Assembly: GCA_011364975.1 (NCBI GenBank)
Contig: RDOE01000020.1
Coordinates: 1-45,456 of the forward strand
DNA length: 45,456 bases
Direction: 5' to 3'
DNA from: Promethearchaeota archaeon
GTDB taxonomy: Archaea > Asgardarchaeota > Lokiarchaeia > Sigyniarchaeales > SOKP01
Shown: positions 32,237 to 36,982 of the stretch, piece by piece
How the letters are laid out: each line of letters opens with the position of its first letter
How positions within the stretch are numbered: the stretch's first letter is position 1
Program-made: the position numbers and the translations under genes
The notes under the pieces: model-generated
The model's input: only the letters and a program-made list of their open reading frames with translations
The model's database searches: none
Told to the model about the DNA's origin: nothing

Positions 32237-35098
32237 CTAATTCTTAACATTTATTGACACTTTTACAAGTGCATCGTTGATCTTAAACTCCTTATGATTT
32301 TGTACGCTCCTAGTATTTTCAATTAAAAAATCAGATTGAGTCATATCCATGACTTCATCTTTGTGGTTTCTAACAGAGCTCATTATTTCCTCATCTGTGG
32401 TTTCTAAATGGAGGATTATTCGATCACTTATTGATAAACCCATCTCTTTCCTGTAATTGTTTATATGACGAATTAAATTCCTAGCTATTCCTTCTAATTT
32501 TAAATCAATGGTGATTTCGGTATCTAATTCGATAGAAATATGTTCTTCATCTTGACTTTCGAGTTTTATATTTCTCACGTTAACAGCATCCGCGATTATA
32601 TCTAAGAATCCCTTATCTAAACTCGTACCCTTTATGATAAGGCGTCCTAAAACTTGCCGAACTGGAATTTTAGCATTATCACGCGATTCTAAAGCTTTTT
32701 TGACAATATCTCTTGTTAATTCCATCTTATTTTGTAAATCAACATTTATTAATCCGTCATTACAATTAGGCCATGACTCTAAATGGACTGATTCTAACTT
32801 CACGAGTTTTTTTTCTTTAAGGGTTTGATAAATCATTTCAGAAATAAACGGGGTTAAAGGAGCTAATAATCGTGATGTGATGGTAAGTACATATGATAAT
32901 GTTTTCATTGCTTCTCGTTTTTCAATCTCATTATTACTCTTAAACCTACTTCTGCTATTTCTAAGATACCATGTAGAAAGGTCCTCTACAAAATTAAATA
33001 ATAATCTGCTAACTTCGGCTGTATTATAGTCATCCATCCCTTTAGATACATCGTGAATTAGAAGATTTAACACGCTTATTATCCATTTATCTAAGATGTT
33101 GGTTGATTCGGGATTGTCATTATCAGAATTGTTAATTTCGAAAAGACGATAAAATTTGATCACGTTAACAAGTAATAAATTAAACCTTCGATAGACTTGT
33201 TGTATTATTTCTTCTCTTAAGTTTAAATCTTGAGCTCTCATTAATTGGGATGATAAGAGATACATTCTTAATGCGTCTGCTCCATATTTCTCTATTATTA
33301 AATTTGGATCGGGGTAATTTCTTTTAGACTTAGCCATTTTGGTTCCATCCTCCGCAAGAATATTTCCATTTACAACCACATTTTTAAAGGGGATCTCATT
33401 AAATAGCAATACAGCAATCACATGCATATAATAAAACCATGCTCTAACTTGTCCCACATACTCAGATATGAAATCACTAGGAAAGTAGGAGCAAAACTCT
33501 TCAGCATTCTCGAAAGGATAATGTCTTGAAGCATATGGCATTGATCCCGATTCTAACCAGCAATCAAAAACTTCAGGTATTCGATCCATTTTTTCTCCGC
33601 AGATAAGACACCTTAGATGTATTCTATCAATTATATGCCTATGAAGATCGACATCATCAGGAACTTTTTCTAGTGCAAGTGCCTGTAATTCTCTAATAGA
33701 GCCGATTACTACAATATTAGCACACTGTTTACACTCCCAAACTGGTATTGCTGTAGCCCAAAATCGATTTCGAGAGATACACCAATCAGGAGCTGTTGAT
33801 ATGATATTTTTATACCTTTTAGAGACTTCTTCGGGATACCAATTGATTTTCTCGTTAGTTTCAAGAAGCATCGGTTTAATTTCTTGTATTTTTATGAACC
33901 ATGCATCAATTGCATTGTATATTAGGGGGGTTTCACATCTATAACAAAATGGATAGGAATGTAAATGTTCTTCTGTACTGAATAAAAGGTTTTGCCTTCT
34001 TAAATCATCTGATACCAGTTTATCAAGGTCTTTAAACCATGTTCCGATCCATTCTTTTGGGCCATCAATCAAAACTCCCCTTTCATCAATATGTTGAATG
34101 ATTGGTAATTCGTATTTCTCTATTATTTCATAATCAAATTCGCCATATATCGCTATGTGAATGATTCCAGTCCCTTCGTCCGATAAAACATTTTTACCTC
34201 CATCAATTATGAGATATCCTCTCCTTTCGGTATCCGGATAAATTCGATATAACGGTTTATACTCTTTTAACAACAACCTATTTCCTTCAAATTCTTCTAT
34301 CAATTGAAATTCTTCCTTAATGGTTATTAATCTTGATTTCATCAAAATTAAGAATTCATCAGTACCCGTGATCTGAATTTTTGAGTAAATCTCCTCACCA
34401 TTTACAGCTAAGGCTACATTTCCAATCAAGGTCCATGGGGTGGTAGTCCAAGCAAGGAGATATGTATTCGGTTCTGACATCAGTTTAAACTTTACTGTTA
34501 TTGCATGTTCATATACATCTCTATAACTGTTATCCATAGATATTTCAGAATTTGAAAGGGGTGTTTCGCATCTTGGGCAATAAAGTAAGACTTTTTTGCT
34601 CTTGTAAACATACCCTTCGTTATATATTCTTTTAAATATATACCAAATTGTTTCCATATATGAATTATCCATTGTTTTATATGAATTATCGAATTCTATC
34701 CATTTACCCATTCGCTCAACTGTTGTTTTCCATTCATTAGTATACCATAGAACTTTTGAACGGCAATATTCGTTAAATATATCAATCCCCATCTCATGAA
34801 TTTCACTTTTTTGTCTCAGATTTAATGCATTCTCGCATATAGTTTCTATGGGTAGGCCATGGCAGTCCCAACCCCAACGTCTATCGCAACGGTAACCTTT
34901 CATTGTCCAATATCTTGGGAACACATCCTTTGTAACAATACTTAGAATATGACCATAATGAGGTAATCCCGTGGCAAAAGGAGGGCCATCATAGAAAATA
35001 TATGATTTCTCTTTAGGGCGTTGTTCTACACTCTTTTCAAATATATCATTTTCCTTCCAAAATTTAATAAATTCTTTCTCTTTTTCTATATACGATAA
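32237..35098 (-). CDS. ileS: Isoleucyl-tRNA synthetase; N-terminus extends beyond the track call, start codon non-canonical
   Basis: Upstream in-frame extension SYIEKEKEFIKFWKENDIFEKS...FYDGPPFATGLPHYGH; GWDCHGLPIE, WTTTPWTL, DWCISRNRFW, KMAKS; SD GAGGTG at 35111-35106; in-frame TAA at 35116-35114; exact start uncertain. Confidence 0.93.
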   Translation of the reverse strand, partial: LSYIEKEKEFIKFWKENDIFEKSVEQRPKEKSYIFYDGPPFATGLPHYGHILSIVTKDVFPRYWTMKGYRCDRRWGWDCHGLPIETICENALNLRQKSEIHEMGIDIFNEYCRSKVLWYTNEWKTTVERMGKWIEFDNSYKTMDNSYMETIWYIFKRIYNEGYVYKSKKVLLYCPRCETPLSNSEISMDNSYRDVYEHAITVKFKLMSEPNTYLLAWTTTPWTLIGNVALAVNGEEIYSKIQITGTDEFLILMKSRLITIKEEFQLIEEFEGNRLLLKEYKPLYRIYPDTERRGYLIIDGGKNVLSDEGTGIIHIAIYGEFDYEIIEKYELPIIQHIDERGVLIDGPKEWIGTWFKDLDKLVSDDLRRQNLLFSTEEHLHSYPFCYRCETPLIYNAIDAWFIKIQEIKPMLLETNEKINWYPEEVSKRYKNIISTAPDWCISRNRFWATAIPVWECKQCANIVVIGSIRELQALALEKVPDDVDLHRHIIDRIHLRCLICGEKMDRIPEVFDCWLESGSMPYASRHYPFENAEEFCSYFPSDFISEYVGQVRAWFYYMHVIAVLLFNEIPFKNVVVNGNILAEDGTKMAKSKRNYPDPNLIIEKYGADALRMYLLSSQLMRAQDLNLREEIIQQVYRRFNLLLVNVIKFYRLFEINNSDNDNPESTNILDKWIISVLNLLIHDVSKGMDDYNTAEVSRLLFNFVEDLSTWYLRNSRSRFKSNNEIEKREAMKTLSYVLTITSRLLAPLTPFISEMIYQTLKEKKLVKLESVHLESWPNCNDGLINVDLQNKMELTRDIVKKALESRDNAKIPVRQVLGRLIIKGTSLDKGFLDIIADAVNVRNIKLESQDEEHISIELDTEITIDLKLEGIARNLIRHINNYRKEMGLSISDRIILHLETTDEEIMSSVRNHKDEVMDMTQSDFLIENTRSVQNHKEFKINDALVKVSINVKN

Positions 35099-35186
35099 TA
35101 AAATACACCTCTTTTAGATGATCTTTCTTAGTTTTTTCCTAAATTTAATTAATGCTAAATTAAAAAATTATTTTTGAAACTATGAG

Positions 35187-35207: not shown

Positions 35208-35263
35208 TATTTGAAGCCAGATGTGGAAACAAAGCTATGAAATGTCGCTTCAAACGATAGCGT

Positions 35264-35338
35264 TTATTCAATAATAATCTTAGATGGGATAATCATAATA
35301 ATAAGTGCTAAAACTTCAAACAATACTTGTTTATTCAT
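35264..35338 (-). CDS. Ile-rich leader peptide upstream of ileS (MNKQVLFEVLALIIMIIPSKIIIE)
   Basis: 24 codons, 7 of the last 12 are Ile; same strand as ileS and about 165 nt upstream of it. Confidence 0.7.
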   Translation of the reverse strand: MNKQVLFEVLALIIMIIPSKIIIE

Positions 35339-35509
35339 AGCATCCACATCTAATGTTATATATTAAAAAAGGATACCCAGTTTTATAAGTTTAACTTAGT
35401 CATTATAACAAGATGATTTGATGATTTTACTCCCTTAGACAATATATTTATTCTAAAAAAGCCATATTATCCATAGAACGTATTATATAACATATCATGC
35501 AAAATTTCT

Positions 35510-36982
35510 ATGGAACCTCGAAACATCCTTAAAACATTAGCTCATTTTGCTGAGCGTGAATACAAAGAAAAGCGTCCAAAATCTGTAAAAATCTATCGAG
35601 TAAAAAGTAAAAGTGTTCTAACAAGAGGAGTTTTACCATCGCTTCAAATCAAACAGGTGGGGCCCATTGCATTTCTCGTTATTGCCGATTATGGAGAACA
35701 CTACAGATGTTACAATTTCTCTCGTCAAGGCATACTTATATCAGGAGACAATGTAGAACCGAGTCCAAAATTTCTCAAAGATTTAGAAAAATCCACAAAA
35801 CTAGAATTCCAGTTACCTAAAAAAGAACCTATCACTCATCCTAAAGACATTTCAGCACAAATTCAGGATATTTTCAAACGCCATATCAATCGTCTTAACT
35901 CATTGATAGGTATAAATATAATTATCCCCCCATTCAGATTGCGAGAAATTTTTATAACCTTAATTACGCAATATACTACGTTAAATCAAGAAGAACTCGA
36001 AATAATAATAGTATCTGAGATCTTCACGCATTATCTTAAAAATGTAATCAATCTTCCTCAGATATTACCAAAAATCGTTTCTCATAATTTAATTTCTATG
36101 ATATTAACACATATTTATTTCAATTTTAAATATAGCCTTCAAATTGGACACCAATTTTCTCTTTCTGAAAAATTATTAAAACAACAAACTGATATACCTT
36201 TTGATAATGCAATTACCTTATACAACCTCTCTAAAGAATTTGTAATAAATCGAATAGCAAGTCTTTCTAAAAATCATCTTACACTTTTGATAAAATCAAT
36301 TCATAATATCTTATCTTTTATCCCCCTCTATCAAATTGAGTTATCATCAAGCGAAATTGTCAATTTGCACAGAGAGTTGTACAAATACCTTAATTGCTTT
36401 CTTGAGAAAAAAGAAGAAAATAAGAAATATCAGATTTCCTTCTCTGAAATCGCGACTCTTTATTATAACATAAGTACAACAGAATTCTCCAAGCAAATCT
36501 TTGGGATAAATGCAATTATTCCAATCAATCAAGATCAACAAATGAGCTTTACTGAGTTACTTTCATTAATCAATTCCTATTTAAATGACCCAAAGATAAA
36601 AAATATTATTGGTAAATTATCAGAATTTATCTCAGACAGCATAAATCAATACATATCGGATAAGATCATTAAAATAGCGTTGGAATCCATGATTCAAGAC
36701 GATATGTACACTCTTATCCTTATTATCACTAACAAGAGTGAATTTATGTTTAAAAATTTTGTTAGTAAAGTAAAGTGGAAACCTAAAAAACGTTTAGAAT
36801 TAGTGGGAGGGAAAAATAATGAGGAACAAGCTGAATTACCTAAAGAATATGAATATAATCTTAAATTTTTAATTAAAAGCAAAGGACCCTGCACAATTTT
36901 CTCTACTTTCTCGTTTCAAAACCCTATCTTTCCATCCCAAGAACTTAAGATAAAAAAGAAACTCGGGAAACTCTCCATTTAA
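35510..36982 (+). CDS. Hypothetical protein
   Basis: 490-aa ORF with no recognisable motif; possibly a beta-rich C-terminal domain. Confidence 0.7.
   Translation: MEPRNILKTLAHFAEREYKEKRPKSVKIYRVKSKSVLTRGVLPSLQIKQVGPIAFLVIADYGEHYRCYNFSRQGILISGDNVEPSPKFLKDLEKSTKLEFQLPKKEPITHPKDISAQIQDIFKRHINRLNSLIGINIIIPPFRLREIFITLITQYTTLNQEELEIIIVSEIFTHYLKNVINLPQILPKIVSHNLISMILTHIYFNFKYSLQIGHQFSLSEKLLKQQTDIPFDNAITLYNLSKEFVINRIASLSKNHLTLLIKSIHNILSFIPLYQIELSSSEIVNLHRELYKYLNCFLEKKEENKKYQISFSEIATLYYNISTTEFSKQIFGINAIIPINQDQQMSFTELLSLINSYLNDPKIKNIIGKLSEFISDSINQYISDKIIKIALESMIQDDMYTLILIITNKSEFMFKNFVSKVKWKPKKRLELVGGKNNEEQAELPKEYEYNLKFLIKSKGPCTIFSTFSFQNPIFPSQELKIKKKLGKLSI

Follow-up and report, generated by a model that had tools for sequence, protein, structure and literature searches.

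A conserved run of isoleucine codons upstream of a eukaryote-like ileS gene in Lokiarchaeia: a candidate leader that senses isoleucyl-tRNA through competing RNA helices

The stretch of DNA analysed here (the window, 45,456 nucleotides (nt) of contig RDOE01000020.1 from a Promethearchaeota archaeon of the Lokiarchaeia) carries on its minus strand ileS, the gene for a type-2, eukaryote-like isoleucyl-tRNA synthetase (IleRS). A short open reading frame (ORF) that ends in a run of isoleucine codons lies upstream of this gene. It is proposed, with a probability of roughly 0.7, that this ORF and the boxes around it form a cis-acting sensor of Ile-tRNA(Ile) supply, in which a leader RNA with two alternative states acts on ileS, and that a sister element with a run of leucine codons serves leuS. 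Comparison with related genomes supports the view that the ileS leader is conserved, specific to its lineage and Ile-sensing, with a two-clamp RNA switch of a novel kind.

The leader ORF and its conservation

The original prediction, made from the letters of the window, placed an Ile-rich ORF on the minus strand with seven Ile among its last 12 codons, a stop codon about 165 nt 5' of the IleRS N-terminus, and TATA-like elements upstream. The sequence, strand and translation of the ORF all match, as do its Ile content and the spacing from its stop at 35264, and two TATA-like boxes are found upstream of it, at 35388-35381 and 35370-35356. Counts out of 39 in this text refer to the window together with 38 Asgard-labelled loci.

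35264..35338, minus strand: leader ORF of 24 codons plus TAA, ATG AAT AAA ... ATT ATT ATT GAA TAA, encoding MNKQVLFEVLALIIMIIPSKIIIE
35270..35278, minus strand: Ile run ATT ATT ATT, followed by GAA and then TAA (35266-35264); columns invariant in 39/39

It had also been cautioned that ATT is common in AT-rich DNA, and this caution was justified, as small-ORF counts from the window's own genome assembly (G000; 3.74 Mb, GC content 0.306) do not by themselves exclude chance. The assembly has 9272 ATG ORFs of 20-30 codons, of which 22 contain at least seven Ile within 12 codons; III occurs among the last six residues in 57 of its 6581 intergenic small ORFs, and folding of the leader region as a single sequence gives no signal relative to shuffles (z = 0.27). 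The last two figures are what speaks for a chance ORF in AT-rich intergenic DNA. The comparative data refute that explanation and leave it next to no probability, since the ORF is conserved in every Asgard-labelled locus with this ileS (75-84% protein identity), along with invariant boxes and compensatory changes. Thus, judged by the conservation of the ORF and its flanking boxes across relatives, the leader is more than a chance occurrence.

A locus scan that took one genome per species yielded 80 loci with this type of ileS, of which 38 are Asgard-labelled and 42 are not; the labels were taken from record titles, and the Asgard ones are Promethearchaeota with a few Hermod-, Hod- and Thorarchaeota. 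The leader ORF, for which a search among relatives had been suggested, is present as a conserved Ile-rich upstream ORF (uORF) in all 38 Asgard-labelled loci, whose ileS products are 77-84% identical over the first 230 residues. Within the genus of the window, all nine genomes with type-2 ileS have an upstream ORF ending ATT ATT ATT together with the flanking boxes. The other 42 loci mostly carry DPANN labels, and their ileS is 62-73% identical over 230 residues. The leader element is absent from all 39 of these that were examined (three had too little upstream sequence), two of which have much shorter ORFs ending III-X-stop.

Start, stop and an intact frame are conserved in all 39 leader ORFs. 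The start codon is ATG in 38 and GTG in one; the length is 24 codons in 33 loci, and the remaining six, of 20-25 codons, keep the frame. Each ORF contains 5-10 Ile. The terminal run comprises three codons in 15 loci, four in 23 and five in one, and is followed immediately by the stop in 23 loci and by one codon and then the stop in 16. Its 142 codons are ATT (121), ATC (20) and ATA (1); ATA makes up 33% of Ile codons in the long ORFs of G000 and is avoided in the run. The N-terminal halves of the leader peptides diverge in sequence, with the frame conserved.

The peptide itself might be the functional product, either as a small hydrophobic protein with its own job or as an arrest peptide like TnaC, responding to free isoleucine when translation terminates. 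Some positions apart from the run do recur (M-N-x-N-T-K-F-L, and I-I-S/T preceding the run), and the Ile run sits at the stop codon, a position that we take to resemble that in termination-arrest peptides. However, the peptides of the window and of loci L060, L054 and L251 share little except the Ile-rich tail, whether the tail is Ile or Leu depends on which synthetase follows, covarying RNA helices overlap the ORF, and an IleRS gene would gain little from sensing high free Ile. A role for the peptide as such is therefore very improbable.

Of 151 genomes of the order, 38 have a strong match to a covariance model of the element (R1), one in each genome. The matches are confined to two genera of one family, g1 (8 of 41 genomes, plus that of the window) and g12 (29 of 53), with none in 22 other genera, and those in g1 coincide with the nine genomes that carry type-2 ileS. 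Among 80 metagenome loci R1 matched 32, which are all those with at least 75% N-terminal identity except L253 and L254. On this evidence the Ile leader element is single-copy and known from two genera only. Candidate extra copies were rejected: weak R1 matches in G000 (E 0.5-10) were judged spurious, as was a second match in genome G107 (E 0.006), because it lies antisense within a 377-aa Cys-rich ORF.

The gene upstream of the leader varies among genomes and is co-directional in L054, L066 and L070; since the neighbour differs, the leader appears to travel with ileS and not with the neighbour. In the window the neighbour is divergent, a 490-aa ORF at 35510-36982 (plus strand) with no NCBIfam match.

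Competing RNA helices around the isoleucine run

Two competing sets of pairings bracket the Ile run: box A can pair with B or with D, and arm C with C' or with E, D and E being contiguous.

35341..35353, minus strand: box A, TTAGATGTGGATG (GTGGATGTGGATG in most relatives), 2 nt 5' of the ATG, complementary to B and D
35280..35290, minus strand: box B, ATCCCATCTAA, within the ORF, its 3' end 2 nt from the Ile run; competes with D for A
35246..35262, minus strand: hairpin C':C, beginning 1 nt past the stop, CGCU (35262-35259) with AGCG (35249-35246)
35247..35254, minus strand: arm C, TTTGAAGC, which pairs with E; U-rich stretch on its 3' side
35219..35226, minus strand: box D, CCACATCT (relatives: CCACATCC), fully complementary to A and situated in the loop that C:E closes
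35210..35217, minus strand: arm E, GCTTCAAA, directly 3' of D, which pairs with C

The GATGTGG of box A is invariant in all 39 sequences. In relatives, C':C is formed by AAUUCAUUU with AAGUGAAUU, followed by U3-5, while the window uses a shifted register. The helices are mutually exclusive, and with B ending 2 nt 5' of the run and C' starting at the stop, both would fall inside the footprint of a ribosome paused on the run, given the footprint size that we assume.

Given the sequences only, RNAalifold predicted A:B with 8 pairs and C:E with 10, and 6 of these 18 pairs are compensatory. Across the 39 sequences, 99.7% of cells are paired in A:D, 96.3% in C:E, 94.8% in A:B and 86.0% in C':C, and the pairs changed on both sides number one, four, three and one, respectively. 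In an enlarged alignment (A8; 70 sequences, 62 distinct), on figures that are generous for reasons given below, A:B and C:E together are 97.7% paired against 28.5-50.5% in slid controls, and both sides are changed in 8 pairs, where shuffles give 4.4 +/- 0.7 (0/500). Taken singly, A:B is 98.2% paired in this set with 2 covarying pairs, C:E 97.2% with 6, and A:D 99.4%.

Individual lineages exhibit the changes behind these figures. In the lineage of the window, a G-to-A change at the first position of the A core is matched by C-to-T (U) in both B and D. In A:B, a C-G pair stands in place of U-A in the L054 clade and in the divergent L251, and in L251 a G-C pair of C:E is turned into A-U. A compensatory swap in C:E (35247/35217), C-G in the window and U-A in a 99%-identical metagenome strain (L221, 533-572), indicates ongoing selection on this helix. 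One-sided changes are mostly wobble-compatible (UG 9 and GU 2 in A:B; UG 3 and GU 3 in A:D). The predicted duplex energies of the alternative partners of A are close, at -12.4 kcal/mol for A:B and -13.6 for A:D in the window, and -15.9 and -15.1, respectively, in L051. C:E (-11.1 kcal/mol in the window, -9.8 in L051) is stronger than C':C (-5.4 and -5.9).

A leucine leader upstream of leuS

The original prediction had also proposed that ORFs rich in the cognate residue be sought upstream of other aminoacyl-tRNA synthetase (aaRS) genes, and such an ORF was found before leuS (TIGR00395, 955.8 bits in G000).

G000, contig C47, 4385..4296, minus strand: Leu-run leader, MMIINTAYKQVICKNFLLGDLLAVLLLLL, ending TTA TTA TTA TTA TTG TAA, 137 nt before leuS

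A family-wide search recovered a close leuS orthologue in 49 of 101 genomes, and among the best 30 of these loci (L179-L208, 29 distinct) the Leu leader is present in all 30. It is about 28 codons long, has 5-9 Leu among its last 12 codons, and takes the form M-I-S-N-K-T-A-L-...-D-L-L-A-V-L-L-L-(S/L), with TTA TTA TTA. Directly after its stop there is a covarying hairpin of 10 predicted pairs, 4 of them compensatory (10-13 bp), with a loop segment that is complementary to a conserved downstream box, GAAAGAGATCATAGG.

The string TTATTATTATCT (35270-35281 in the window) is common to the 3' ends of both leaders, the ileS leader reading it as Ile codons and the leuS leader as Leu codons; its use in two frames fits translation-based sensing. 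The two leaders also open alike, with ATG ... AAT AAR ... ACT. They may share a common origin, as paralogous elements retargeted by a frame shift. On these comparisons, these Asgard archaea have at least two cognate leaders, the Ile leader of the window among them. At 13 other synthetase genes of G000 (two class-I-like and 11 class-II or class-Ib genes detected with Pfam models) no cognate-run uORF was seen by eye, PF00749, PF00750, PF01406, PF01409 and PF01411 being left unsearched. Fifteen small ORFs of G000 end in runs of R, H, C, T, A, V, D, E or Q; six of them precede an ORF of at least 100 residues, and none of these six unannotated ORFs is synthetase- or biosynthesis-like, judging by its first 60 residues.

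The shared string bears on a further explanation, in which the element is a structured cis-regulatory RNA that binds a protein such as IleRS, or tRNA, and acts without translation, the ORF being incidental. Such an RNA would be in keeping with the covarying helices and with strong conservation at the nucleotide level, which extends to boxes A, B and D and to synonymous positions in the Ile run, and ATT ATT ATT could be a sequence or specifier motif instead of codons. Nevertheless, start and stop are conserved and every length variant is in frame, the first half of the ORF is free to change in sequence but holds its frame, and the frame in which the same trinucleotide repeat stands gives Ile upstream of ileS and Leu upstream of leuS. 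In addition, no Rfam family was matched, the T-box included. A translation-free RNA is thus unlikely.

Promoter-like boxes and the start of the transcript

35381..35388, minus strand: TATA-like box 1, TTATAAAA, aligning with a conserved T-rich box of relatives, TTTTTTAGA / TTTTAAAA
35356..35370, minus strand: TATA-like box 2, TTTTTTAATATATAA; TTTAATAT begins 30 nt 5' of the leader ATG, the geometry of a leaderless mRNA

The columns of box 1 are nearly invariant and stand at the 5' end of the leader alignment. If box 1 is the promoter, the transcription start site (TSS) would lie about 5-8 nt 5' of box A, and box A would be in the RNA; the rule that relates the position of a TATA box to the TSS is one that we assume for both boxes. 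A genome-wide calibration of TATA-to-start distances in G000 gave peaks too weak to choose between them. Because A covaries with B, it is probable that box A is transcribed at least some of the time.

If box 2 were the promoter, A, B and D might be DNA sites for a transcription factor (of GGATG type, once forward and twice reversed), with a leaderless mRNA in which C:E is the only RNA structure. The position of TTTAATAT would then put A at -16..-4, about where archaeal repressors often bind. The leuS leader shares the TATA-to-ATG geometry and has no A-like box, and A, B and D change together in the lineage of the window, both of which are compatible with DNA sites. On the other hand, most changes in B or D that have no counterpart in A still allow a wobble pair. 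A:B and A:D, set in AT-rich surroundings, are iso-energetic and 8-10 bp long, and the position of B, where a ribosome paused on the run could reach it, has no explanation if B is a DNA site. Taken together, the evidence makes binding sites in the DNA a distinctly unlikely account.

The proposed switch

In the preferred reading, that of a translated Ile-sensing leader, the ORF of 24 codons would be translated up to last sense codons that are 3-5 AUU or AUC. When charged tRNA-Ile is scarce, a ribosome would pause on the Ile run and its footprint would hide B and C'. Box A and arm C, thereby freed, could clamp D-E as it emerges from the polymerase, and A:D and C:E would stack into a pseudoknot-like helix of about 17 bp. 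With ample Ile-tRNA, the ribosome would terminate and leave, A:B (with C':C) would form, and D would be single-stranded in a U-rich loop. The sister element with the Leu run would control leuS. The kinetic logic would be that of bacterial attenuation, wired differently.

The two conformations are expected to lead to different amounts of ileS mRNA or protein. The preferred output is a choice between read-through and termination or cleavage in the U-rich region and an oligo-T box about 60 nt before ileS; differing transcript stability comes second, and an effect on ileS translation third.

35162..35167, minus strand: T6 run within an AT-rich box, about 60-70 nt upstream of ileS; may act as an oligo-T terminator, as a TATA box of ileS, or as both

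A T run of at least five is found 50-70 nt before ileS in 32 of the 39 loci, and of at least six in 25 (median shuffle fraction 0.095). Oligo-T tracts serve as archaeal terminators, and this run could be one, which would make the leader a true attenuator. C:E itself is followed by an A-rich stretch. The sole terminator-like site in the neighbourhood, at 35555-35540 (minus strand), lies within the divergent neighbour gene and was rejected as part of the leader. Sequestration of the ileS Shine-Dalgarno (SD) sequence is not supported by the models: box D and D-E, tried as an anti-SD for ileS, form duplexes like those of shuffled sequences (mean z 0.17 and 0.11), and the D-E junction and the SD region are paired in 80.8% of cells, against 80.0% in shuffles (67/500).

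Several observations weigh against the switch as drawn. Box 2 lies at -30 from the ATG, in leaderless geometry, and the same is seen before the leuS leader; were transcription to start at the ATG, box A would be outside the RNA and half of the switch would fall. A bacterial promoter and terminator scan found no hairpin-plus-U terminator in the leader on the minus strand. The AT-rich box before ileS may be that gene's own promoter, in which case the leader would be a separate transcript; similar boxes precede archaeal-type ileS as apparent promoter elements, which is why this possibility is raised. The sole RNA contig, from one public run, is of 174 nt within ileS (34643-34816). When a ribosome footprint is masked in silico, the ileS ribosome-binding site (RBS) shows no change in accessibility, at 0.436 free and 0.439 masked (values 0.436, 0.439 and 0.434; Wilcoxon p = 0.18), in nested folding, which cannot model a pseudoknot.

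The helices have weaknesses of their own. The 70-sequence alignment was fitted to the structure of the model, to the advantage of A:B and C:E, and because its sequences are related the shuffle controls overstate significance; the pairing figures are generous for both reasons. C':C is only 86.0% paired in that set, with little covariation. The case for A:D consists of complementarity and a single compensatory lineage, because the helix is almost invariant. Finally, A:D and C:E cross with L3 = 0, an unusual geometry for a pseudoknot.

The proposal of an Ile leader peptide upstream of ileS is supported by comparison of sequences. The idea that ribosome stalling on Ile codons controls ileS divides in two: its sensing half is well supported in this way, while 'attenuation', in the sense of regulated termination, is conjectural. 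The leader region itself is covered by DNA contigs from one public run only.

The ileS gene and its start

32237..35098, minus strand: ileS, type-2 (eukaryote-like) IleRS; TIGR00392, 819.6 bits, cut-off 621.4
35106..35111, minus strand: SD-like GAGGTG of ileS, with its GGTG part at 35109-35106

The downstream gene is, by its sequence, a type-2, eukaryote-like IleRS, as its closest solved structures are chains of cytoplasmic isoleucine--tRNA ligase (E 3e-207), with a second group at about 1e-84 to 1e-89; the division of these Protein Data Bank chains between IleRS types 1 and 2 is one that we presume. On the MupA/MupB models it scores 653-679 bits, under their cut-off of 1900. No second IleRS was found in G000 by tblastn.

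Most genomes of the same genus have instead a 1050-aa IleS that is 31-33% identical to that of the window. Type-2 ileS is found in 9 of 42 genomes of the genus and in many of a sister genus, and G008 and G024 hold both types. This patchy distribution suggests transfer and displacement of ileS. The nearest relatives of type-2 ileS outside the Asgard archaea are those with DPANN labels, at the 62-73% identity given above.

Upstream of the archaeal-type ileS of relatives, a uORF ending III was found in none of 23 loci, a further two of the 25 having too little upstream sequence. An apparently conserved 24-aa ORF in this position was rejected, as it overlaps an upstream CxxC gene. In L010, L012, L013, L017 and others (alignment A6), an AT-rich AAAATTTTTTTAC lies about 50 nt and TTTTATAA 29 nt before the ATG, a two-box layout similar to that upstream of the ileS leader. 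No SD-like motif is present, and the archaeal-type ileS mRNA is possibly leaderless for that reason.

Relatives with the type-2 gene have GGTG or GGAG 6-8 nt before the ileS start, and SD motifs are enriched at -15..-6 genome-wide in G000. The codon 6-8 nt past the GGTG box is ATG in 18 of 39 relatives, ATT in 16, ATA in three and TTG in one. In L046 and L049 the only alternative, a GTG within the box, is closed by TAA, so that ATT seems to be the real ileS start codon there. The first conserved ileS codons of the window are at 35098-35087 (minus strand), and its start is anomalous: an ATT at 35099-35097 is out of frame by one extra base, and the in-frame codon is TTA. The same start sequence recurs in the 99%-identical metagenome contig (L221, 680-705) and in a DNA contig of run X2, and is thus not a one-off assembly error.

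Short ORFs at DPANN-labelled loci

Two DPANN-labelled lineages have short uORFs that end ATT ATT ATT NNN stop before the orthologous ileS. A GC-rich hairpin and a U6 run come after MQQSFLSVKIIIQ-stop in L085 (1390-1500), 45 nt upstream of ileS, and together resemble a terminator of bacterial type. In L098 and L174, MKFIINKIIIE and MKLIINIIIA, each with a hairpin, lie about 125-150 nt before ileS. The uORF is present in none of nine relatives of L085 and in three of five loci in the order of L098 (L098 included). These DPANN uORFs are best regarded as leads.

Relation to known leaders

Control by a leader peptide is a textbook bacterial mechanism that needs ribosomes close behind the polymerase, and archaeal polymerase terminates differently from the bacterial enzyme. 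The bacterial leaders ilvL, ivbL and leuL precede the ilv and leu biosynthetic operons, where runs of Ile and Leu codons likewise sense branched-chain aminoacyl-tRNA; the Asgard target, in contrast, is a synthetase and not a biosynthetic operon. Before bacterial aaRS genes, leader-peptide attenuators have been described at pheM-pheST of gamma-proteobacteria and predicted at leuS and trpS of Streptomyces (PMC1262725). The ileS element resembles these in having a short ORF with tandem cognate codons upstream of a synthetase gene, and alternative helices placed so that a paused ribosome would choose between them. It differs in several respects. Bacterial attenuators have a GC-rich terminator hairpin with a U run and a 1:2 / 2:3 / 3:4 layout, whereas no such terminator was found in the Asgard leader; its regulatory codons come very last and are flanked by A:B and C':C; its distal D-E would take up an arm from either flank, so that the helices cross; and its host is an archaeon, not a bacterium. 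The element would thus work like a leader-peptide attenuator and is not a member of the terminator-defined bacterial class, as an intrinsic terminator was looked for and not found.

Mycobacterial leaderless poly-Cys small ORFs (sORFs), termed a 'ribulon', offer another parallel: there, ribosome pausing is reported to open a structure that sequesters the RBS (10.1101/834739). Shared with it are a sensory sORF that is possibly leaderless, a run of a single codon type, occurrence at several loci and, as proposed here, a paused ribosome that blocks an mRNA structure. Unlike in the mycobacterial case, RBS sequestration is not supported for ileS, whose start is about 165 nt away.

In Firmicutes and Actinobacteria, ileS is under T-box control (PMC1262725). 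The regulated gene and the signal (uncharged against charged tRNA-Ile) would be the same. However, the T-box binds tRNA directly and has no ORF, whereas the Asgard leader has a conserved, putatively translated frame and no T-box match. A search of 4227 Rfam families at E <=10 gave no relevant match, the three hits being unrelated, at 15-17 bits against gathering thresholds of 44-51, and the window contains no tRNA or tmRNA.

No description of leader-peptide attenuation in archaea was found among the papers listed by full-text search, a scope that leaves out subscription journals and supplementary files, so that a prior description is possible; in PMC4833913 and PMC2965389 archaea appear in the reference lists only. 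A broader claim is held with a little more belief than doubt. It is that this would be the first amino-acid-sensing, ribosome-dependent leader-peptide control in Archaea: a Lokiarchaeia 'ribulon' made up of the Ile leader with type-2 ileS and the Leu leader with leuS, the two leaders perhaps derived from one ancestor via a frame shift over (TTA)n, with a two-clamp, pseudoknot-like switch that has no hairpin terminator.

Significance

If the proposal is true, translation would be kinetically coupled to transcription, or to the fate of nascent RNA, in the closest prokaryotic relatives of eukaryotes. It bears on whether Asgard ribosomes act on nascent transcripts, on regulated termination or RNA decay without bacterial terminators, and on how the supply of amino acids may be sensed in these archaea. 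Cognate-codon leaders before two synthetase genes provide a concrete handle on these questions, testable by sequence changes. The element also draws attention to a patchily distributed eukaryote-like IleRS that would have replaced the archaeal enzyme in some genomes, bringing with it its own putative sensor.

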